Shown here in pieces: positions 34,828 to 44,955 of a DNA stretch of 64,000 nucleotides (positions within the stretch are counted from its first letter, which is position 1; each line of letters begins with the position of its first letter). The notes under the pieces were generated by a model. It saw only the letters and a list, made by a program, of their open reading frames with translations, was not told where the DNA came from and searched no databases. Location: assembly GCF_054482525.1 (NCBI RefSeq), contig NZ_CM137006.1, one strand, 5' to 3'. A program made the translations under genes and the position numbers.

Positions 34828-35661
34828 TTATCGCATTATGCCCATAAAGCCATGCACACCCATATACACACCAACTAAGCCAATCAACAGACTGGAAAAA
34901 TAGGGGGCGCGTTTAGCGAGAGTGTTAAATCCGCTCCAGCGTTTTGCGACCTGCTGAACGCTGATTGCTGCGCCAACGCCTACGGTGACCAGCGTTAACG
35001 CCAGGCCGATGCTGAAACTGACGACCAGTGTTGCGCCCAGTGTCAGGGCTTTCAACTGAATGCAAATCAACAGCACGGTAATTGCTGCCGGGCAGGGGAT
35101 AAGGCCACCGGTTAAGCCAAATAACAAAATTTGCCAGTTGGTGACCTCTCTACCATCAAAGCGTCGTTTAATGTCATTGGCATGGGCTCGTGCATGAGCA
35201 TCCTGATACTCCCCATGTTCGTGATGGTGATGATGTCCATGGTCGTGGTGATCTTCGTGATCGTGATGATGATGGTGATGATGCTCATGATCATGCCCGT
35301 GCATATTCTCCAGCCAGTTGCGTTCGCCGCGCCAGGTACGCCAGAACATCCAGAACGCGGTGCCAATAATGATCACCGCGGAAATCAACTGGAGCCACGG
35401 TTCTGCTGATTGAGCAGTAAAGCGCTTACTGATCACCATCCCGCCAAAGGCAATCAACCAGACCACCGCGGTATGCGAAATGGTTGCTGCCAGTCCGAGC
35501 ATCACCGCCTGTTTAATGGTGCCTTTGATGGCGATGATAAACGCCGCCATCATCGTTTTTGAGTGCCCTGGTTCCAGGCCATGAAGCGCACCAAGTAAGA
35601 TGGCGCTGGGGATGAAGAACCAGGCGTTTCCTTGCTGAAGAAGAGTGGTAAATTCGGTCAT
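34828..35661 (-). CDS. rcnA: Ni/Co efflux membrane protein with a histidine-rich loop
   Basis: Polytopic membrane ORF with a central HGHDHEHHHHHHHDHEDHHDHGHHHHHEHG tract. It is divergent from rcnR. Confidence 0.93.
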   Translation of the reverse strand: MTEFTTLLQQGNAWFFIPSAILLGALHGLEPGHSKTMMAAFIIAIKGTIKQAVMLGLAATISHTAVVWLIAFGGMVISKRFTAQSAEPWLQLISAVIIIGTAFWMFWRTWRGERNWLENMHGHDHEHHHHHHHDHEDHHDHGHHHHHEHGEYQDAHARAHANDIKRRFDGREVTNWQILLFGLTGGLIPCPAAITVLLICIQLKALTLGATLVVSFSIGLALTLVTVGVGAAISVQQVAKRWSGFNTLAKRAPYFSSLLIGLVGVYMGVHGFMGIMR

Positions 35662-35698
35662 GATAATAATTCTTAGTATTAATTCGGCAATCCGATTC

Positions 35699-35733
35699 TA
35701 CTCCCCCCCAGTACCTGATACTACCCCCCAGTA
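35699..35733. promoter_or_regulatory. two RcnR operator sites of the TACT-G6-N-AGTA type in the rcnA-rcnR intergenic region
   Basis: TACTCCCCCCCAGTA (35699-35713) and TACTACCCCCCAGTA (35719-35733). They match the published RcnR operator consensus read on the complementary strand. Confidence 0.8.
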
Positions 35734-35781
35734 GATTAATAGTGCTATGATTTTTCATGTTCTTGTTAACCAGGTGTTGCC

Positions 35782-36054
35782 ATGTCTCATACCATCCGTG
35801 ATAAACAGAAACTGAAAGCGCGTGCCAGTAAGATTCAGGGCCAGGTCGTGGCGCTCAAGAAAATGCTCGACGAGCCGCACGAATGCGCTGCAGTTTTACA
35901 ACAGATTGCTGCTATCCGTGGCGCGGTAAACGGTCTGATGCGGGAAGTGATTAAAGGTCATCTGACGGAACACATCGTTCACCAGGGGGATGAGCTAAAA
36001 CGTGAAGAAGATCTGGATGTCGTTCTGAAGGTGCTGGATTCTTATATCAAATAA
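35782..36054 (+). CDS. rcnR: CsoR/RcnR-family Ni/Co-responsive repressor
   Basis: 90 aa ([22 protein letters not shown]..), matching K-12 RcnR. Confidence 0.94.
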
Positions 36055-36091
36055 TTTATTAACGCTATTGTAAAACTGCCGTTTTTCCTCG

Positions 36092-36120
36092 TTTACAACG
36101 GGTGCGCTGGACATTACCAT
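36092..36120 (+). promoter_or_regulatory. putative native thiM promoter, now separated from thiMD and pointing into the island integrase
   Basis: TTTACA-17 bp-TACCAT lies immediately upstream of the left copy of the riboswitch sequence. This is a prediction by eye. Confidence 0.45.
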
Positions 36121-36142
36121 CCTCCTCTGCGATTTATCATCG

Positions 36143-36224
36143 CAACCAAACGACTCGGGGTGCCCTTCTGCGTGAAGGCTGAGAAATACCCGTATCACCT
36201 GATCTGGATAATGCCAGCGTAGGG
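36143..36224 (+). repeat. attL: 82-bp direct repeat, a 5' portion of the TPP (thi-box) aptamer that lacks the 3' strand of the closing helix and the expression platform
   Basis: Identical base for base to 44033-44114. It contains CTGAGA and the other thi-box core sequences. It diverges from the thiM leader after ..GCGTAGGG. Confidence 0.9.
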
Positions 36225-36307
36225 GGCCAAAATAGTCTTGAAAATTATGTGGTTGTATCTCTTTTTGACCATAAATCATGCTGTTAAGGTACAAAAAGGG
36301 GTCGTTT

Positions 36308-37615
36308 ATGAGGTCAAGAACTCTCCCATACACATTTCAGCGAAACGGTAATTACTATCTACAAATCCGGCTTTCGGATGGTCGGATATACAAAAAATCA
36401 CTTTTTACTGACAGTTATCGCGAAGCATCGGCGTTGATGATTGGCCTTACTCCGCACATTCCTTTCGTTAAATCACTCGCTACTCCGTTGCCGCAATTTA
36501 ATAAGTTTGTTTCAAACTTGATCGCTTCGTCACGTAACGTAATGATTCCGTTGCCACTCCCTCAGCAATTGAACAATATTTCTAAAGAAGTTTTGCAGCT
36601 TCAACCACCAGCCAAACCGGAAAAGGTACTAACACTTGCTGATGCGTGGGCTATGTACAAGGAGGAAAGAGGTCGAAATTGGACAAAATCGATCTCAATA
36701 GCAAATGAGCGTTATATGGAGGTATTGCTTGTTGTCTTGGGAAAAGAAACAGACGTAACGGCAATCACCAAACAAGATATTAAGCGAGTAATGGAAACTG
36801 TCGAAAACTTACCAAAGCGTGTAGTGCAACCGTATAGGTCAATGACTATTCAGCAACTAATCGAATGTGATGATGTGCTGCCAGAGGATTTAGTTGGTGC
36901 TGAGGCTGTACATAAGCACCTTAAAATCTACAAATCGTTATTCAAAACATTTCTGACTGAAAACAAAGATATTCTATCTAAGTCTCCGACTGATGGAATA
37001 GTAGCGGCACCATCCAAAGCTAGGTTTGGTGCATACAGTGCAGCAGAAATGAAAAAATTTGTAGGATGGGCACTAAAGCAGCCTGATGGATGGCAGAAGT
37101 GGATCACTTTGTTGTTGGCGTACACAGGAGCCAGAAGAGGTGAGATTGCTAAACTGGAGAAGTCGCAGATCAAATTTGATGAAGATAGCCAGCGGCACTA
37201 TCTTCTGATCGCGGAAAGAAGGCTGGGTAAAACTGAGAATGCTACAAGACAGGTAGTGATTCATCCCAAACTGATTGAGTGGGGGTTTCTGGATTTTGTT
37301 AACCGCCAATGGAAAGAGAAAATCTTTTCGGAAGTCTCAGGTCGAAATATGTCAAAGATAGGTAAAGTTCTTTCAGATGTTCGTGATCAGCTTGATATTC
37401 CTTATCTTGATGATTATGGGCAGCGGCGCTTGGTGCATAGTTTCCGGCATACTATGATTTCTACTTGTTTAGCTGGTTGGGTGAGTAATTTGGCGCATCT
37501 GCAACAGGTGGTAGGTCATGAAAAGAGTGGAGTAGGGATTACCCAGCGTTATCTGCACACATTCCCACTTTCCACCGTTTGTTATGTGATCGATGGTCTT
37601 TGTTGGGAGACTTAG
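36308..37615 (+). CDS. tyrosine recombinase / integrase
   Basis: The ORF in the track starts at 36278. I prefer the ATG at 36308, after an AAAGGGG Shine-Dalgarno. N-terminal arm-binding-like RNGNYYLQIRL, then catalytic-domain motifs ARRGEI, HSFRHT and GHEKSGVGITQRYLH (Tyr). Confidence 0.88.
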   Translation: MRSRTLPYTFQRNGNYYLQIRLSDGRIYKKSLFTDSYREASALMIGLTPHIPFVKSLATPLPQFNKFVSNLIASSRNVMIPLPLPQQLNNISKEVLQLQPPAKPEKVLTLADAWAMYKEERGRNWTKSISIANERYMEVLLVVLGKETDVTAITKQDIKRVMETVENLPKRVVQPYRSMTIQQLIECDDVLPEDLVGAEAVHKHLKIYKSLFKTFLTENKDILSKSPTDGIVAAPSKARFGAYSAAEMKKFVGWALKQPDGWQKWITLLLAYTGARRGEIAKLEKSQIKFDEDSQRHYLLIAERRLGKTENATRQVVIHPKLIEWGFLDFVNRQWKEKIFSEVSGRNMSKIGKVLSDVRDQLDIPYLDDYGQRRLVHSFRHTMISTCLAGWVSNLAHLQQVVGHEKSGVGITQRYLHTFPLSTVCYVIDGLCWET

Positions 37616-37743
37616 TTATTCGTGTATCCTTCTTAGTGTATAACCAGCTAATAATTTGTAGATTTTTATTGTCTGAGATCAAAAATTTTCACAACTAATT
37701 TACAATAATAACTTAAGATGAATTTAGGCTTAGTGAGTCTTCT

Positions 37744-38469
37744 ATGGTTAAAAATTTAGGCAAAAAATACAAGTATGGCGATCAACCGATAAGAGCTATT
37801 ACCATACAGATAATTGCTAATCAGTTTGGTGGGGCTGCAACGGCTAAGCAGGTAGATGATTATCTTAGAAAGCTATTTCCATCTTATAAAGATAATACTT
37901 GGCTCAATTTAATTGCTAATACAGTTAATTGTAAGCGGAGCTACTGGAGTTTCAACAAAACTGCCCGACGAACTGATGATGTAACTCATCGGCATCATAA
38001 GTATGACCGATTGTTCAAGCGTGGAAATATTTTTGAAATCTATCAACCATCTGTGCACGGTATTTGGGAATTATACCAGGATTTAGAAGGGATGTGGCGT
38101 TATCGTCAAGTAAAATCGGTTTTCGAAGAAGCTGTTGAGACGGCTGCAAAATTATCTTCAGTGGAACGAAAGCAAATTTTAGCGACAGAAAGTAAAATCC
38201 CGGAACTAATCGAAGTAACAACACGAGTTTATAAACGAAGCCCATATGTAGTTGCTGAAGTTCTTTTGAGAGCAAATGGAAAATGTCAATATTGTAAGCG
38301 AGATGCTCCTTTTCTAAAGGAAGATGGTACTCCATTTCTAGAAGTTCATCATATTGAGTGGCTTTCAAAGGGGGGGGAGGACTCTGTGGAAAATGCTATT
38401 GCATTATGTCCTAATTGCCATAGACAAGCCCATTATGGCGATCTGACATTACTACCTGTTAATAAATAG
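37744..38469 (+). CDS. HNH nuclease-domain protein with an uncharacterised 170-aa N-terminal domain (McrA-like architecture)
   Basis: C-terminal CQYCKRDAPF..EVHHIEWLSKGGEDSVENAIALCPNCHRQAH is a canonical HNH/zinc-ribbon motif. No adjacent methyltransferase gene. Confidence 0.8.
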   Translation: MVKNLGKKYKYGDQPIRAITIQIIANQFGGAATAKQVDDYLRKLFPSYKDNTWLNLIANTVNCKRSYWSFNKTARRTDDVTHRHHKYDRLFKRGNIFEIYQPSVHGIWELYQDLEGMWRYRQVKSVFEEAVETAAKLSSVERKQILATESKIPELIEVTTRVYKRSPYVVAEVLLRANGKCQYCKRDAPFLKEDGTPFLEVHHIEWLSKGGEDSVENAIALCPNCHRQAHYGDLTLLPVNK

Positions 38470-38546
38470 GCTTGATGAAAGTTCTATTTCTATATTTTTC
38501 AATATACAAATTTCCCCAAAAACGGCGTGAATATCACGCCGATCAA

Positions 38547-38894
38547 TCATACTTCAGAACACATACTCAATGTGTAAACAGCCATCTCCCCATCGGGATT
38601 AGAAGGGCGTAATACAAATATCGGTATACTGCCATTGTCAATGTATGTGGCTGCAACCCCTCCGTCAGGTGTAGCATACATCTTTGCGATGCTTTTTTGA
38701 CCTACAAAATCAAGTCTCCAAGTTTTACCGCCAAGATTTATGGTCATTTTTTTATCTTGTATATCAAAAGTTGAATCTACAGAAACTTTCTGACTTCCCG
38801 AGTCAATATGACCTTCCTGTATTGCTTTACAGGAAAAGGTTGTGGCGTGGCCCATCACTGGAATTAACAAAGCGGCAAATACTAGTTTTTTCAT
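38547..38894 (-). CDS. small secreted protein of unknown function
   Basis: I prefer the start at MKKLVFAALLIPVMGHA (signal peptide), after an AAGGGAGA Shine-Dalgarno. 115 aa with two Cys. The ORF-track start at 38951 is rejected. Confidence 0.7.
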   Translation of the reverse strand: MKKLVFAALLIPVMGHATTFSCKAIQEGHIDSGSQKVSVDSTFDIQDKKMTINLGGKTWRLDFVGQKSIAKMYATPDGGVAATYIDNGSIPIFVLRPSNPDGEMAVYTLSMCSEV

Positions 38895-39004
38895 TTGTCT
38901 CCCTTGGTGTGTCAAATGGATGGTGATGCTAATAATACATGATTGATTCAAAATGTCACGATTAGTGCGTGGTTAATTGGTGCGTCAAATTGCATCTTTG
39001 TGCC

Positions 39005-39469
39005 ATGCGAAAGAATCTGAGATACCTTTTTGGACAACGAGTAAAAGAGTTCCGTATAGCTATTGGCTTAAGCCAAGAGGCCTTTGCAGATCGGTGTGGT
39101 TTTGCACGTAGTTATATGAGTCGAATTGAGCGTGGTTGCTCTAATGCATCTCTTGATGCAATTGAGGTTCTGGCTGACGCTTTGCGTATTGAGCCTTGGC
39201 AGTTACTGGCTTCTGATTCAAGGAAACCTGATGATCAGGAGGTACTTGTTCCTTATGCTGCAGATGGGTCGTGTTTTCATCCAGGATTGGCAAGTACTCG
39301 CGATGGTTCGTTTAGAGTAGGGGAAAAATCAGCCCAGAAACGTTTCAGTTCGTTCAATGAAGCTCTCGAATACCTTCGTGGAATGGAAACCGCGAAGTGG
39401 CGTAGGCCTAATGCTAGTGGTAATTGGGGAATTGTATCTGCGGTTAAATGGGATCGACTGAATCAATAA
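39005..39469 (+). CDS. XRE-family HTH protein fused to an uncharacterised C-terminal domain
   Basis: HTH region LSQEAFADRCGFARSYMSRIERGCSNASLDAIEVLADAL. The 90-aa C-terminal part (..ETAKWRRPNASGNWGIVSAVKWD..) is not recognisable to me. Start chosen at MRKNLRYLFG. Confidence 0.75.
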   Translation: MRKNLRYLFGQRVKEFRIAIGLSQEAFADRCGFARSYMSRIERGCSNASLDAIEVLADALRIEPWQLLASDSRKPDDQEVLVPYAADGSCFHPGLASTRDGSFRVGEKSAQKRFSSFNEALEYLRGMETAKWRRPNASGNWGIVSAVKWDRLNQ

Positions 39470-39635
39470 GATATCAGTAATTTTCGGGCCACTCCACAAG
39501 GCAATAAGTGGCTTAGTGGTGATTATCGAAGGGGAATACAAGCGAGCACCTAGGCACCATTGCAAGAACCGCTCAACGCTGAGATCAGCAAGCCCCGATT
39601 TTTGCCGACCGTCCCTGTCAAATATCAAGGAGGCA

Positions 39636-40187
39636 TTACGCCACCTGCTCTTTCTTGATACGTTGCACCGTCTGCGTGCTGACACTGAAATCTTTTGCTA
39701 CGCTCCGAATTGAGCCACCATTCGCGAGAGCGGCAGCAATTCCCGCTCGATCAATTGCTTTTCCATTACCACGTTTTGCTATACGTCCAGCGGCCTTGGC
39801 TGCGGCGATCCCTTCACGTTGACGCTCAAGCATCATTTCACGTTCCATTTGTGCCACTGCTGCAAGAACTGTGAGCATCATATTCCCTGCGGGAGAGTTC
39901 TTTCCTGTCTTAAAGTCTTCTTTATGGAAATGCACAGACACGCCGCGCTTTGTTAATTGCTCTACAGTTGCCAGAAGGTCGGCTGTATTACGACAAAGGC
40001 GATCAATACTATGGACGTGTAACACGTCACCCTCCCGCACATAGTTCATCATTGCCTCAAACTGTGGGCGCTGAGTGTTCTTGCCTGACGCTTTATCTTC
40101 AAAGACTTTATCAAGAGTTACTCCTGCTAATTGACGGTCTGTGTTTTGTTGCACAGTCGATACCCTAATGTATCCAATATTAGCCAT
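39636..40187 (-). CDS. serine recombinase (resolvase/invertase family)
   Basis: MANIGYIRVSTVQQNTDRQ contains the catalytic Ser. Also VHSIDRLCRN and a C-terminal HTH (SIRSVAKDFSVSTQTVQRI). 183 aa. Confidence 0.9.
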   Translation of the reverse strand: MANIGYIRVSTVQQNTDRQLAGVTLDKVFEDKASGKNTQRPQFEAMMNYVREGDVLHVHSIDRLCRNTADLLATVEQLTKRGVSVHFHKEDFKTGKNSPAGNMMLTVLAAVAQMEREMMLERQREGIAAAKAAGRIAKRGNGKAIDRAGIAAALANGGSIRSVAKDFSVSTQTVQRIKKEQVA

Positions 40188-40214
40188 CTTCTTTTTTCTT
40201 CTGTATTGATTTGT

Positions 40215-40318
40215 GTGTAGTGATTATTGAACGTGTTGATTAGGTGTGTAAAGTACTTTTTTCACTACGAAATTCGAAGTTTTTTAGTGTGGTGATTTAG
40301 CCTGCCTTATCACTACAC
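40215..40318. promoter_or_regulatory. res-like site upstream of the serine recombinase gene
   Basis: Perfect 10-bp inverted repeat GTGTAGTGAT (40215-40224) / ATCACTACAC (40309-40318), with inner related half-sites TCACTAC (40262-40268) and TAGTGTGGTGA (40285-40295). Confidence 0.5.
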
Positions 40319-40572
40319 TTCTTGCATGAGAATCATGTAGTTACATTTTGGTAAAATTAGCAAGCTATTAAATTGTGTGTTTATTTTGAAAAAATAATTT
40401 TTGTTGCATTAAAGAAAACTTGTTCGACAAATAATAGGTTGATTTTTGATCAATAATTTCTGATAGTGCTCTGTAAGCCGCATTACACAAGGCGCAGCGA
40501 AAGTGATGTAAAAGTGAAGAAAGCTAACATTGCACTTTTAAACTACTTTTCATTGAATTTTTTAGTATGGAA

Positions 40573-40643
40573 TTACACAGGAATAAGTTAGGGATATTCT
40601 ATGATTTACACAGGGAATATAGGGGGATTATGGTATTACACAG
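40573..40643 (+). repeat. three direct repeats of about 20 bp with core TTACACAG, spaced 33 and 30 bp
   Basis: TATGGAATTACACAGGAATA, TATGATTTACACAGGGAATA and TATGGTATTACACAGAGTGA. Cores are at 40573, 40606 and 40636. Confidence 0.7.
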
Positions 40644-40673
40644 AGTGAGTGCTATGTGATGATTGGTAGTAAC

Positions 40674-40782
40674 GGTAGGTCACTGTGAACTAGGGGGGTA
40701 GGTCACTGTGAACTAGGGGGGTAGGTCACTGTGAGCTAGGGGGTAGGTCACTGTGAACTAGGGGGTAGGTCACTGTGAACTA
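40674..40782 (+). repeat. five contiguous iterons (GGTAGGTCACTGTGAACTAGGGG, period 23/23/22/22 bp): putative vegetative origin
   Basis: Read directly from the sequence. Copy 3 carries one A-to-G change. The array is immediately followed by an AT-rich tract. Confidence 0.85.
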
Positions 40783-40877
40783 CAATAAGACTATAATAAG
40801 ACTATTAATAAAACTATATTAGATTATTAATTAGATCATAATAATAATATTCTTTATATCTATATATATATGATCTT
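40783..40877. other. AT-rich tract next to the iterons (candidate DNA-unwinding element)
   Basis: Almost pure A/T, with internal AATAAGACTAT x2 and a TATATATATAT run. Confidence 0.5.
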
Positions 40878-41883
40878 TTGCCTTCCGGCGTTAGCTTCAC
40901 TCTCTGGCAAGCAGCCTTACTCCGCTACCTTTCGGGCTACGTTGGCTGGCCCGTTCCGCTCACACCGAAAGCAAAGCGTTACTTTCTTCGTGTAACTTCG
41001 TTGGCGGTAACGCCCACGAAGGAATACTATTGCGCTGTGCGCAGTAAGAGTAATCACCTAACCAATCATCTGATTGCTTACGTGTTAACTCTCTCTAACT
41101 CTTAATTACCCTCCTACATTTAATAACTCTCGTTATTCTCTGTAGTTGTGTAATTACTCGAAGAGAGAGCGGCTAAAGCTCAATTACACTCTGCTTTCCT
41201 CGTGTAATTTCACTAAGCCTCAATACAATTTCACTTCCTACATTCTGTAGTCGTGTAATTGTTTTCGGTGGAAAAGCCAGAGGCGACACCGAAAGAGAAT
41301 TCTGATCTTATTAATCTTATCTATCTTAGTTATCTTACTTACTTTATCTACTTTATTATTAATAATAGCTTTATAAGCTCTCTGTGTAGCTCTCTGACGC
41401 AAGAAACAGAGTTCAGGAAGGGAATCACCTTAGAAAAGTGTTCTTTGCGTCATAATGTGTTTTATGAAGGATTCAGAGGTGTTTCATAACAGAGATGTAT
41501 AGAGGATACTTTAGGTAATTAAAAATAAGGGGTCTAAATGCTTCTCTAACAGCATTAAGCAGGGTAGAGAATGGAAACCGCTTTGCCTACATATATAAAC
41601 TCACTACAGGGCTTTACAGAGCGTTTTATAAAGTGACTCTCTGTTTTATATCTACCATCACCTTTTCATATACCTAACAAATACAAAATAAGCCCCTTAA
41701 ATAAGCCTCTGGCGAGCTAAACAGCCATTACATAAGAGAATGTATTGCTTTTATCAAAACCTCGTTAGAACGCGTTTTAGAGCGTTTTAGCGGATAATGA
41801 AGAATAGCACTACACAGGAGAGCACGAATTGCTAAGAAAAAATGTAACTACATGAAAAAGATCAGATTTTTTGTGAAAAGGTA

Positions 41884-41912
41884 TTGACAAACGTCTCTTT
41901 CTGTGCAATAAT
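41884..41912 (+). promoter_or_regulatory. predicted sigma70 promoter upstream of the rep-like operon
   Basis: TTGACA (41884-41889), 17 bp, then AATAAT (41907-41912). Confidence 0.5.
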
Positions 41913-41965
41913 AGGTATTAGAGGGACAGGAATAGATTCTTATCCTCTAAATAATTAAACCAATG

Positions 41966-42010
41966 CACCGCACTTTGAAGCCCAAGGCTTGTAAGGTGTG
42001 TTTTTTCTTT
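41966..42010 (+). terminator. intrinsic-terminator-like hairpin between the promoter and the first ORF (attenuator, or the 3' end of a roughly 90-nt sRNA)
   Basis: Long imperfect stem 41966-41982/41986-42000 around a CAA loop, followed by TTTTTTCTTTT. It lies 29 bp upstream of the ATG at 42039. Confidence 0.55.
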
Positions 42011-42038
42011 TAACCAAATAGAATAAGGAGGCTAATTA

Positions 42039-42227
42039 ATGAAATATTTTACTCCACAGGATGTAGTAGAAGCCTGGAAACGTGGTGAGATCAACCGCTT
42101 TAAAGTAAGGATGTATAGAAACACCGCTCGCCGTTGTGGTTATCCAGAGCGTGAAAAATGTTTTGACGATGCACTAAAAATTATTGATGAACTGCGTAAA
42201 GCTGAGAAAGAAGCAGAGAAAAAATAA
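42039..42227 (+). CDS. 62-aa basic/acidic small protein, unknown function
   Basis: Strong AAGGAGG Shine-Dalgarno 8 nt upstream. It is the first ORF of a tightly packed 4-gene cluster. Confidence 0.65.
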   Translation: MKYFTPQDVVEAWKRGEINRFKVRMYRNTARRCGYPEREKCFDDALKIIDELRKAEKEAEKK

Positions 42228-42249
42228 TAGACAAGAGAAGGAGAAAACT

Positions 42250-42417
42250 ATGAGCGAAACTAAGAAACCAATTCCGCGCACTTACCTACACGTTGACCCT
42301 GAAATCTTCAAGGTTTTATTTGCTGAAGCCAAGAAAAGGCAAATTATGGTCAGTGATTTGATGTTAGAAATCATTACTGAAGCAGCAGAGAACATCAAAC
42401 AAAAAAAGGGTAAGTGA
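42250..42417 (+). CDS. 55-aa ribbon-helix-helix (CopG/Arc-like) protein candidate
   Basis: Start at MSETKKPIPRTYLHV after AAGGAGAA. The beta-strand, helix, helix pattern (RTYLHVDPEIFKVLFAEAKKRQIMVSDLMLEII) fits an RHH fold. The ORF-track start at 42184 is rejected. Confidence 0.6.
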   Translation: MSETKKPIPRTYLHVDPEIFKVLFAEAKKRQIMVSDLMLEIITEAAENIKQKKGK

Positions 42418-42468
42418 TCCTCATTCACTTTAGTAGCGCATTAAGCGTGATTTATAAGGAGATTTTTA

Positions 42469-43158
42469 ATGATTAATCAACTAACTTTTACAAAACACTA
42501 TGACACGTTTGATAATGTATCAAAGATTTATTCTGATAAATTCCCTCAAGGAAAAGATTTAGATCTATTACATATTGTGCTTTATTTTCGATTCCTTAGT
42601 TATCAGGAAAACAACCTTAATTGTTATGAAAGTCACGAAACATTAGCTAAGATTTTTAAGTCTTCAGCGTCAACAATTAAACGTAAGATAAACGATCTTA
42701 AAGAGATGGGATTATTAGAAACATCCCCACATCCTGATCCGTATATTTCATCTTTGATTTACAATGCTCTCCCTCTCACAGATGCACATATTACTCCCCC
42801 AGGAGAATCATCACTCTCTGATCTTTCTGAGGCAGAAGAAGCACAGGAACAACCTAAAGGCCATAAACAGCCTTCTTTTGATGTTCTTGATGATTGGGAT
42901 ACGCCTTTACCCTGGGAGACGGAAGAAACACCTGTTTCATCAAGTGAAAAAGTAGCTAATGATAATGAGGAGGATGTGTTAGAGAATTTTGCCTCTCTTA
43001 TCATCCAGGAGAAACACACAAGAACAGGAGGAGCATCATTTATTGAGTTTGCAAATTCACTAGCTTGTAGATACGGGCTAAAACGACCAAATGGTATTGA
43101 GGCATATTTTTCTAAGAATTACCCAAATATATACGATGACTTTGATATTCCATTTTAA
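42469..43158 (+). CDS. putative replication initiator (winged-helix N-terminal domain, acidic C-terminal half)
   Basis: HETLAKIFKSSASTIKRKINDLKEMGLLE is an HTH/wHTH like those in DnaD/Rep-type initiators. AAGGAG Shine-Dalgarno. It is encoded near the iteron array. The function is inferred. Confidence 0.55.
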   Translation: MINQLTFTKHYDTFDNVSKIYSDKFPQGKDLDLLHIVLYFRFLSYQENNLNCYESHETLAKIFKSSASTIKRKINDLKEMGLLETSPHPDPYISSLIYNALPLTDAHITPPGESSLSDLSEAEEAQEQPKGHKQPSFDVLDDWDTPLPWETEETPVSSSEKVANDNEEDVLENFASLIIQEKHTRTGGASFIEFANSLACRYGLKRPNGIEAYFSKNYPNIYDDFDIPF

Positions 43159-43169
43159 TAAGGAGGGTT

Positions 43170-43415
43170 ATGATTCAATATTTAGTAAAAAATCAAGTAG
43201 ACAGAATTCAGTGTAATGACACAGGAAAACGCATCTACGAGACACTTGTTTACCTCTATAAAGGAAAGCCAACACCGCTAAAATATAGCGATGTGTTACA
43301 TCGAGCAGGTTGCTCTGAGTCAGGTTTAAAATTCTGGCTGAAACAGCTATCAAATTTCGGTGTTATTGAAATGAAAGAGCTGTCTTTTTCTACATTCAAC
43401 CTCAAGAAGTTATAG
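43170..43415 (+). CDS. 81-aa winged-helix-like small DNA-binding protein candidate
   Basis: AAGGAGGG Shine-Dalgarno. The YSDVLHRAGCSESGLKFWLKQLSNFGVIE segment looks like a wHTH. Confidence 0.55.
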   Translation: MIQYLVKNQVDRIQCNDTGKRIYETLVYLYKGKPTPLKYSDVLHRAGCSESGLKFWLKQLSNFGVIEMKELSFSTFNLKKL

Positions 43416-43483
43416 AAAATAGAATTCATCTATTCCACGCTCTAATTCTATTTCTCTGTTTAATATAAAAGGAAAACATTATT

Positions 43484-43561
43484 ATGGTAATAGCTATGTG
43501 GTGGTTGTTGTTTTTTATGCTCGTAGAAACATATGCAAGTAAGTCTGGAAAACAAAAATAA
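43484..43561 (+). CDS. candidate 25-aa hydrophobic peptide (MVIAMWWLLFFMLVETYASKSGKQK)
   Basis: Hand-translated. AAGGA lies 10 nt upstream. It has a hydrophobic N-terminal part and a basic tail, like type I toxins or small membrane peptides. There is no other support. Confidence 0.25.
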   Translation: MVIAMWWLLFFMLVETYASKSGKQK

Positions 43562-43580
43562 TATATTGATGATTTGTTTT

Positions 43581-43820
43581 TTATAACTTCGTGGTGTCAA
43601 GTCCAGCAGCTTTGAGTCGCTCGGTAAGATTTCTCATTTTGCTGAACTCTGTACCAAAGCTGGCTTTAAGTCCTACACCTTCACAAAACTCTTTTGCCGT
43701 AACCTTTTTCAGATGGTCAGCATATTTGATCATCTGGAGGTGCATTTCCATCGTTTGGCTATTTCGTGGTGCGCTGCTAATGGCTTGCTTAATGTTCTCG
43801 TAGATCTGGGTTTCTGTCAT
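43581..43820 (-). CDS. 79-aa protein of unknown function at the right end of the island
   Basis: Clean ORF, MTETQIYENIKQAISSAPRNSQ... It is the last gene before attR. Confidence 0.6.
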   Translation of the reverse strand: MTETQIYENIKQAISSAPRNSQTMEMHLQMIKYADHLKKVTAKEFCEGVGLKASFGTEFSKMRNLTERLKAAGLDTTKL

Positions 43821-44032
43821 TTTTTATCTCACCTATCAAATTTAGATAAATAATATAAATTAGCAAATTAAGATAATCAATAGTTTTTATCATCTGAATG
43901 ATAGATGTTAAATGTTTCTTTTTCATTTCTGATATGGGGTACAAAATGGGGTACACAGAGAAGAAGCAATTAATGGAGGCGAGCTTGCATCTGCAAGCCA
44001 CTTCCCCTAAGCTGGCACAAAATATAGAGATT

Positions 44033-44166
44033 CAACCAAACGACTCGGGGTGCCCTTCTGCGTGAAGGCTGAGAAATACCCGTATCACCTGATCTGGATA
44101 ATGCCAGCGTAGGGAAGTCACGGACCACCAGGTCATTGCTTCTTCACGTTATGGCAGGAGCAAACT
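44033..44166 (+). promoter_or_regulatory. complete TPP (thi-box) riboswitch of thiM; its first 82 nt form the attR repeat
   Basis: CGACTCGGGGTGCCCTTCTGCGTGAAGGCTGAGAAATACCCGTATCACCTGATCTGGATAATGCCAGCGTAGGGAAGTC matches the well-studied E. coli thiM aptamer. It is followed by the native expression platform and a GGAG Shine-Dalgarno. Confidence 0.92.
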
Positions 44167-44955
44167 ATGCAAGTCGACCTGCTGAGTTCCGCGCAATCTG
44201 CGCACGCGTTACACCTTTTTCACCAACATTCCCCTCTTGTGCACTGCATGACCAACGATGTGGTGCAAACCTTTACTGCCAATACCTTGCTGGCGCTCGG
44301 TGCATCGCCAGCGATGGTTATCGAAACCGAAGAGGCCAGTCAGTTTGCGGCTATCGCCAGTGCGTTGCTGATTAACGTTGGCACGCTGACGCAGCCACGC
44401 GCACAGGCGATGCGTGCCGCCGTTGAACAGGCAAAACGCTCTCAAACACCCTGGATGCTTGATCCAGTAGCGGTGGGTGCACTCGATTATCGCCGCCGTT
44501 TTTGTCTGGAACTTCTGTCTCATAAGCCAACCGCCATACGTGGTAATGCTTCGGAAATCATGGCATTAGCTGGCGTTGCTAATGGTGGACGGGGAGTGGA
44601 TACCACTGACGCCGCAGCTAACGCGATACCCGCTGCACAAACACTGGCACGGGAAACTGGCGCAATCGTCGTGGTCACTGGCGAGATGGATTATGTTACC
44701 GATGGACATCGTATCATTGGTATTCACGGTGGCGATCCGTTAATGACCAAAGTGGTAGGAACTGGCTGTGCATTATCGGCGGTTGTCGCTGCCTGTTGTG
44801 CGTTACCAGGCGATATGCTGGAAAATGTCGCATCTGCCTGTCACTGGATGAAACAAGCCGGAGAACGCGCAGTCGCCAGAAGCGAGGGGCCAGGCAGTTT
44901 TGTTCCACATTTCCTTGATGCGCTCTGGCAATTGACGCAGGAGGTGCAGGCATGA
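44167..44955 (+). CDS. thiM: hydroxyethylthiazole kinase
   Basis: 262 aa ([32 protein letters not shown]..), matching K-12 ThiM. The stop overlaps the thiD start. Confidence 0.95.

Follow-up and report, generated by a model that had tools for sequence, protein, structure and literature searches.

What is the function of a compact operon of four small genes, none with a recognised family name, that lies beside a long gene-free stretch of the Escherichia coli chromosome? The operon (ORF1, ORF2, rep and ORF4; ORF, open reading frame) occupies positions 42,039 to 43,415 of a 64,000-nucleotide stretch of contig NZ_CM137006.1 (NCBI RefSeq assembly GCF_054482525.1), which we call the window, and RefSeq carries the same four coding sequences in the identical locus of strain SCU-102, each as a 'hypothetical protein'. 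We conclude that the operon is probably a module for replication control and initiation, belonging to a 7.9-kb integrative, phage-satellite-like element in the thiM riboswitch leader, and that its largest product, Rep, is very probably an iteron-binding initiator, as judged from its profile matches, its modelled fold and its co-variation with a repeat array.

The AlphaFold2 model of Rep has a confidently predicted winged helix with a DnaD-N-like fold (residues ~10-112, predicted local distance difference test score (pLDDT) about 90), an acidic stretch modelled as disordered (residues 113-165, pLDDT about 40) and a confident four-helix C-terminal domain (residues 167-224). Foldseek searches with this model returned, as top matches, the N-terminal domains of RepA_N initiators and a Rep-iteron complex (4PQL, 4PT7, 5KBJ, 4PTA), the best structural match being RepA of the Vibrio cholerae satellite PLE, which has the RepA_N/DnaD-like fold. 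Nine of the 12 PHROGs matched at E<=0.01 are replication-initiator families and one more is a DnaD-like loader family (186); phrog_270 is the best match (1.9e-9), families 428, 8102, 391 and 678 are also found, and families labelled 'replication initiation O-like' match weakly (1.6e-4 and 2.6e-4). Against Pfam, Rep scores 24.4 bits (E 2.6e-5) with HTH_36 (PF13730), just under the gathering cut-off of 25, and some variants that are 96-100% identical to it carry a precomputed PF13730 label; this match is borderline. Rep has no Pfam match to Phage_rep_O or to the Rep_3 profile (RepA/RepE/pi), its model showing one winged helix followed by a helical C-terminal domain and not two winged helices in tandem, and the C-terminal domain searched alone against the PDB gave no match. 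The sequence family is small (39 clusters at E<=1e-3 among 1.84 billion representatives). The initial search for homologues yielded near-identical E. coli copies and nothing else, and a search of representatives reached the diverse members; the eight related genome loci recovered all come from Enterobacterales.

The N-terminal domain of Rep thus falls in the HTH_36/DnaD-N/RepA_N-like group of initiator winged helices, and Rep is a small, separate sequence family, a divergent variant of a known initiator kind and not a new fold. An earlier note on this DNA, made by eye from the sequence, had proposed a replication module with a 229-amino-acid candidate initiator, and this is borne out by the initiator matches among the PHROGs, by the RepA_N/DnaD-like fold and by an iteron class that co-varies with the N-terminal domain. 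Its statement that no family was recognisable no longer holds for that domain, and its suggestion of a new initiator family survives at the level of sequence but not of fold. The contrary case that it had named, homology with a family of another function (phage repressors, for example), was not found. The Foldseek comparison that it proposed gave RepA_N domains for Rep and only generic neighbours for ORF1.

The link between Rep and a replication origin comes from natural exchanges among related loci (given L numbers here). Every related locus has the same origin layout with a different repeat sequence, and in each of the 24 loci compared the repeats that adjoin the AT-rich region are of the class that goes with the Rep N-terminal domain. 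The clearest case is L015, whose thiM backbone is 99.65% identical to that in the window and in which nothing is replaced but the iteron cassette (window 40616-40837) and ORF2 plus Rep (42249-43134), with homology returning at window position 43135, that is, at the last eight Rep codons. In L004 the N-terminal domain and the iterons have been exchanged together (iterons TACCCCTATCAA...) while the C-terminal domain, ORF4 and the flanking non-coding DNA are kept, and L014 shows the reciprocal arrangement, keeping the N-terminal domain and iterons with a different C-terminal domain and ORF4. Finally, L009 and L003 have ORF1 and ORF2 proteins 95-100% identical to those of the window together with another N-terminal domain and palindromic iterons (TGTAACGAnnnGTTACA). 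These natural swaps and the 24-locus match therefore argue that repeat specificity is set by the N-terminal domain of Rep and not by ORF1, ORF2, ORF4 or the C-terminal domain. Some loci also have composite origins, in which three or four other iteron classes lie upstream of the cognate array (L013:10200-10680; L031, reverse strand, 1300-1530); such stacked arrays may be a record of past cassette replacements, or decoys.

Within the window the five direct iterons, proposed binding sites of the Rep N-terminal domain, lie 1.7 kb upstream of rep and 1.1 kb upstream of the operon promoter, and they are followed directly by an AT-rich stretch that is a candidate DNA-unwinding element. The 90 nucleotides after the array have an AT content of 0.70-0.84 in the E. 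coli loci and a conserved start, CAATAAGA. Next comes a GC-rich block whose core is common to the E. coli, Serratia and Enterobacter elements though its flanks cannot be aligned. This block has a DNA fold z-score of -1.9, its core has no Rfam match, and covariation analysis of the core showed none, the sequence being too invariant; the block may serve in packaging, priming or protein binding. A possible resemblance to the R sites of lambda cosB was set aside after a blastn search of phages gave no lambdoid match. The hexamer GTGTAA/TTACAC occurs 10 times in 40246-41253, against 1.3 expected, with four TTACAC copies to the left of the iterons (40483-40636) and four GTGTAA copies to the right of the AT-rich region (40990-41253), so that the origin is bracketed in opposite orientations.

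Searches of phage and plasmid collections with Rep (tblastn) returned almost nothing, and the sole, weak phage match led to gp184 of Escherichia phage inny, a virulent 147-kb Justusliebigvirus. This 367-amino-acid protein (gene 184, L036:2914-4017) is a chimera: residues 1-129 are 88% identical to the N-terminal domain of the L009 class (K-class), residues 160-247 are 82% identical to the L015-class (Q-class) domain, the linker is partly shared, and the C-terminal portion carries a MUG113/T5orf172 (GIY-YIG-like) domain that resembles endonucleases annotated in other phages. Gp184 lacks a PF tip of the kind described below, and relatives of it are found in phages muut, BI-EHEC and Mt1B1_P17. 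A second case is closer to the window. The 97-kb metagenomic viral contig L046 (IMG/VR UViG_3300045988_074297), which matches inny at 98.8% identity across the 2.9 kb upstream, carries in the same place as gp184 (L046:2771-3511) a 616-bp segment that is 99.84% identical to window 42238-42853. The segment spans ORF2 and the first 128 codons of Rep, which are joined in frame to the L015-class (Q-class) domain. These identities indicate that the Rep DNA-binding domain has been copied by virulent phages into nuclease genes. In the Vibrio system, the ICP1 nuclease Odn has captured the DNA-binding domain of PLE RepA, binds and cuts PLE origins, and is thought to drive the swapping of PLE replicon modules (PMC8263062). 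By analogy, the phage chimeras appear to target the Rep-type origin, which suggests that the ICP1-PLE arms race has an E. coli counterpart.

The other end of Rep is equally distinctive. The protein ends in ...IYDDFDIPF, a near copy of the tip, DDDIPF, of E. coli SSB (the protein that binds single-stranded DNA), with an acidic run and I-P-F at the free end. In Rep relatives the tip is kept as [DE]x[ILV]PF across at least five unrelated types of C-terminal domain (examples are YDSIPF, FDPIPF, FEDLPF, EEFELPF, DFDSIPF and QSTIPF), and among the 613 ORFs of at least 60 amino acids in the window and loci an [ILV]PF ending is found in Rep-family proteins only. The SSB C-terminal peptide DDDIPF is a docking site for DnaG, chi, PriA and more than 12 other proteins (PMC5872125, PMC10018359, PMC3632105, PMC3045619, PMC5531588). 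That the Rep tip works as a mimic of the SSB tail is a tentative proposal, to which we give a little less than an even chance.

We weighed whether the operon could instead be purely a regulatory or immunity module, in which four small DNA-binding regulators set an on/off state and Rep binds repeated operators. Such a module would not call for the iteron/AT-rich/GC-rich origin layout, with repeats 1.1 kb upstream of the promoter and not at it. The profile matches of Rep are to replication initiators, the structure that it matches best belongs to a proven satellite initiator, and phages fuse its domain to a nuclease, as in the origin-directed Odn (PMC8263062); a disordered linker and an SSB-like tip would moreover serve no purpose in a simple repressor. 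We consider this explanation unlikely.

A different view of the tip makes Rep mainly an interference factor that titrates or misdirects the SSB partners of the host or of a phage and so blocks phage replication. The likeness of the tip to SSB fits such a role, as do the other defence cargo of the element (a Type IV restriction-like HNH protein), the fact that PLE replication itself lowers ICP1 replication (PMC7145576) and the apparent selection on phages to attack the module. The strict co-variation of Rep with an iteron array beside an AT-rich region nevertheless points to a cis-acting origin, and any interference could be a by-product of replication, as in PLE; we find it very unlikely that interference is the main role.

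Several observations weigh against an initiator module of the kind we favour. The iterons are 1.7 kb from rep, whereas in most RepA_N plasmids and for lambda O they lie in or beside the rep gene. The Pfam RepA_N profile (PF06970) does not match Rep at E<=1, the HTH_36 match stays below its cut-off, and the NCBI label for Rep is 'transcriptional regulator'. Some origins carry stacked arrays of several classes, so that the mapping of repeats to N-terminal domains is not strictly one to one, and the link between domain and iterons is one of co-variation. As regards the tip, in the model it comes directly after a folded helical domain, whereas that of SSB is carried on a long free linker; the PF ending is missing in a few of the distant members of the family (P0143, P0150); and a literature search turned up no published example of an initiator with a tip like that of SSB.

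Each of the four ORFs has an AGGAG-type Shine-Dalgarno sequence 6-9 nucleotides 5' of its start, and the intergenic gaps are 22, 51 and 11 nucleotides. The ratio of nonsynonymous to synonymous polymorphism (pN/pS) against diverged copies is 0.09-0.11 for ORF1, 0.08 for ORF2, 0.17 for the Rep N-terminal domain and 0.09-0.13 for ORF4, and all four are under purifying selection. The near-consensus promoter is kept in all related loci. The second hairpin of the leader looks, in the predicted structure, like an intrinsic terminator or attenuator, and the arrangement of promoter, hairpin, and hairpin plus U-run is found again in a leader of another type, whose sequence does not align with this one (L005, L007, L008, L011, L012); because this layout recurs, the terminator-like structure is probably functional. 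The gene order ORF1-RHH protein-Rep (RHH, ribbon-helix-helix) recurs in Enterobacter, Serratia, Erwinia, Buttiauxella and Citrobacter elements.

None of the three small proteins has a match in Pfam, NCBIfam, PHROGs or PADLOC apart from scattered sub-threshold Pfam matches for ORF4. ORF1 is an orphan family of 100 clusters, all from Enterobacterales and none named, and is modelled as a three-helix bundle (pLDDT 89). ORF2 shows a strand-helix-helix pattern in its alignment and matches RHH proteins in PDB profile searches (AvtR 2e-3, MazE7 4e-3, HP0222 0.9, Arc 1.5). The orphan family of ORF4 has 179 clusters and a usual length of 92-94 amino acids, the window copy being 11 residues shorter than the usual form owing to an earlier stop. 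ORF4 has weak PDB profile matches to ArsR (7e-3), SmtB (0.011) and PefI (0.013). It follows Rep in E. coli-type elements only and is absent from the Enterobacter, Serratia and Erwinia relatives (L005, L007, L011, L012); because several relatives do without it, ORF4 is probably accessory. It is highly improbable that ORF1 and ORF2 are a toxin-antitoxin or addiction pair (a basic toxin and an RHH antitoxin) merely placed upstream of rep, for although RHH proteins are common antitoxins, MazE7 is among the two best ORF2 profile matches and ORF1 is small, basic and in first position as in toxin-first pairs, ORF1 matches no toxin family in the databases just named and is modelled as a plain three-helix bundle, L015 seems to have no ORF2 yet keeps ORF1 (a toxin could not tolerate that loss), and an RHH gene before rep is a known copy-control design, as in CopG-RepB of plasmid pMV158.

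With respect to the operon, the earlier description of four ORFs with strong Shine-Dalgarno sites and short gaps behind a promoter and attenuator agrees with the coordinates, the RefSeq coding sequences, the purifying selection and the hairpins, and its sketches of the proteins were accurate too: ORF2 is RHH-like, Rep has an N-terminal winged helix and an acidic disordered middle, and ORF4 is weakly winged helix-turn-helix (wHTH)-like. The four genes as one module stand only in part, since the order ORF1-RHH-Rep is kept in relatives but ORF4 is not. The likeness of the Rep ending to SSB lay beyond what that reading of the sequence could show. The coordinates of these features and of the rest of the element are collected in Table 1.

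Table 1. Features of the element in positional order (positions are those of the window; MFE, minimum free energy; aa, amino acids or residue number; nt, nucleotides)
Feature	Position	Strand	Description
TPP (thiamine pyrophosphate) riboswitch, first copy	36146-36241		left boundary of low-GC island
Tyrosine integrase gene			first gene in element order
HNH protein gene	37744-38469		second gene
Small hypothetical gene			third gene
XRE-type HTH (helix-turn-helix) gene	38969-39469		fourth gene
Small serine recombinase gene	39636-40187	-	fifth gene; adjoins origin
Conserved non-coding block	40188-40650		460 bp
Gene-free stretch	40188-42038		1.85 kb, non-coding
17-nt inverted repeat, copy 1	40333-40349		perfect, core ATGTAnnTACAT
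Five direct iterons	40671-40787		22-23 bp, GGGGGTAGGTCACTGTGAACTA; family D1, copies 81-100% identical
AT-rich stretch	40788-40870		~80 bp with GATC sites, directly 3' of iterons
GC-rich block	40871-40975		near-invariant core ~60 nt, CTGGCAAGCAGCCTTACTYCGCTACCTTTCGGGCT...GGCTGGCC.CGTTCCGCTC
Motif AAAACCTCGTTAGAACGCGTTTTAGAGCGTTTTAGCGG	41756-41793	+	core TTAGAAYGCGTTTTAGAGCGTTTTAG; 35-38 nt, ~100 nt upstream of operon promoter
17-nt inverted repeat, copy 2	41839-41855		perfect, core ATGTAnnTACAT
Operon promoter	41884-41912	+	TTGACA-17-AATAAT, extended -10 TG; near-consensus sigma-70, 11/12 matches
Leader	41919-42011	+	two hairpins; second ~41969-42000, then UUUUUUCUUUU U-run (MFE structure)
ORF1	42039-42227	+	62 aa, basic, predicted three-helix bundle
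ORF2	42250-42417	+	55 aa, ribbon-helix-helix-like
Rep	42469-43158	+	229 aa
Rep winged-helix N-terminal domain	42469-42804		aa 1-112
Rep acidic disordered linker	42805-42963		aa 113-165
Rep helical C-terminal domain	42964-43134		aa 166-222
Rep SSB-like tip DDFDIPF	43135-43155		aa 223-229
ORF4	43170-43415	+	81 aa, weakly wHTH-like (ArsR/SmtB, PefI)
HTH_73 gene	43581-43820	-	79 aa; divergent, right end of element
TPP riboswitch, second copy	44036-44132		right boundary of low-GC island

How might such a module work? We propose that transcription from the strong promoter enters a leader with a terminator-like hairpin, so that ORF1 to ORF4 would be expressed only on read-through, and that ORF2, the likely autorepressor of the operon, probably represses the promoter as CopG does in pMV158 copG-repB. 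The winged-helix N-terminal domain of Rep would then bind the five iterons abutting the AT-rich unwinding region. The element has no helicase, primase or loader genes (Pfam and PHROG profile searches), and the 1.85-kb non-coding stretch contains no DnaA box at up to one mismatch; therefore Rep would have to recruit outside machinery through its C-terminal half. Its tip could dock on SSB-tail-binding proteins (PriA, DnaG, Pol III chi or helper-phage equivalents) and the docked tip might deliver parts of the primosome or replisome to the origin once it is open, with ORF1 and ORF4 in accessory roles.

It had been thought that RepA_N-type initiators hardly occur in Gram-negative bacteria, and the way in which they recruit the replisome 'remains unknown' (PMC7145576). 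The present family is a structurally RepA_N-related one in E. coli with a concrete candidate for the recruiting device, the SSB-tail look-alike. The boldest form of our proposal holds both that an origin-specific initiator with a copy of the SSB tip loads the replisome without DnaA and that the element belongs to an undescribed E. coli satellite family in an arms race with Justusliebigvirus phages that carry origin-directed chimeric nucleases; taken as a whole we think this possible but on the doubtful side. If true, it would answer how RepA_N-type initiators recruit the machinery and would provide a second, independent case of the ICP1-PLE-Odn kind, in the best-studied bacterium. Four widespread genes now labelled 'hypothetical' or 'transcriptional regulator' would gain new labels, and E. 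coli genetics and biochemistry (PriA, DnaG, chi and SSB C-terminal peptide assays) are mature enough for the mechanism to be tested.

The element itself is a low-GC island of about 7.9 kb in a chromosomal neighbourhood of yeh fimbriae, rcnRAB, thiMD, yegX and gat. It is bounded by two TPP riboswitch copies and is therefore taken to be integrated in the thiM leader. The thiM riboswitch is thereby duplicated: the element inserts into the riboswitch and rebuilds it. An Rfam search of 35500-44300 at E<=1 returned these two riboswitches and a sub-threshold tmRNA match, and no known RNA in the 1.85-kb non-coding stretch. Among 5426 complete E. coli genomes the stretch 40200-44100 is at least 80% present at one site in six, in three of them in full, and some part of the four-gene module occurs in 1044. 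Relatives with an integrase 77-79% identical are found in Enterobacter, Serratia and Erwinia.

As to the other genes, the HNH protein matches Type IV methyl-directed restriction enzymes in PADLOC (1.3e-23) and the nearby XRE protein matches restriction 'control proteins'; the two are probable anti-phage cargo. The HTH_73 protein is 94% identical across the E. coli, Serratia, Enterobacter and Erwinia elements, in which the integrase is 77-79% and Rep 25-43% identical, and is a candidate master regulator. The small serine recombinase and the conserved non-coding block next to it may form a multimer-resolution system for a replicating form. The two copies of the perfect 17-nucleotide inverted repeat, one beside the gene for the serine recombinase and the second a short way upstream of the operon -35, are the only such sites in the window; their use as inversion sites for the recombinase was considered and set aside, the pair not being conserved in L015 or L009. 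The TTAGAAYGCGTTTTAGAGCGTTTTAG-core motif upstream of the promoter recurs in all E. coli-type elements and, among T5-like phages (KPN4, My1, PK7/PK8), in the terminal-repeat region, in DNA that is non-coding.

The operon and origin also occur in 12-kb elements at tRNA-Thr (L002:13205-25345, in APEC O1 at thrW; also L004, L013 and L014). These thrW elements carry a Phage_cap_E-type capsid gene, a tape-measure-like protein of 609 amino acids and a Dit-like tail protein 58-61% identical to phi92 gp135, and they lack portal and terminase genes. They are possibly an undescribed satellite family of phi92/rV5-like phages. Taken with the module swapping and the phage chimeras, these identities make it somewhat more likely than not that the element of the window is a satellite of phi92-like virulent phages. 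In a literature search no precedent came up for rV5- or phi92-like phages having satellites, and a commentary on jumbo-phage satellites, considered as one, concerns an unrelated Pseudomonas family.

How does this module compare with known systems? In phage lambda the origin lies inside the O gene, and the N-terminal half of O binds the iterons while the C-terminal half recruits the helicase-loading partner P. The present origin resembles that of lambda in having iterons, an AT-rich region and a GC-rich element in the same order and a two-domain initiator; it differs in that the origin is upstream of rep, Rep has no Pfam Phage_rep_O match and the element has no P-like gene. In pMV158, copG-repB places a small RHH gene directly upstream of rep in one operon with one promoter, and RepB is a rolling-circle HUH nuclease. 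Our operon shares the RHH gene upstream of rep under a single promoter, with the difference that ORF2 is RHH-like only weakly by profile. With E. coli SSB, Rep shares an ending of acidic residues followed by I-P-F at the carboxyl terminus, a disordered linker and the property of being a DNA-binding protein. The predicted DNA-binding domain of Rep is a sequence-specific winged helix for double-stranded DNA, in contrast to the OB (oligonucleotide/oligosaccharide-binding) fold of SSB, and a small helical domain stands between linker and tip.

The fold of Rep is like that of the Firmicutes RepA_N initiators (pSK41, pTZ2162; 4PTA, 4PT7, 4PQL, 5KBJ) and of the DnaD N-terminal domain. Unlike those initiators, it has no Pfam RepA_N match, its iterons are 1.7 kb upstream and not inside the gene, it has a disordered acidic linker and an SSB-like tip, and it belongs to an integrative element in the chromosome of a Gram-negative host. 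From RepA of PLE (N-terminal domain 4RO3; PMC7145576) Rep differs in showing no detectable sequence similarity and in its SSB-like tip, which is not reported for PLE RepA, a protein whose C-terminus was not compared. The elements also differ, ours having Enterobacterales hosts, a tyrosine integrase and another gene content where PLE has a large serine integrase and ICP1 as helper, and our operon adds ORF1, the RHH protein, ORF4 and a leader terminator. What the two share is the fold of the initiator and the evolutionary pattern, for the E. coli data show both signatures of the ICP1 Odn-PLE conflict, module swapping and phage chimeras.

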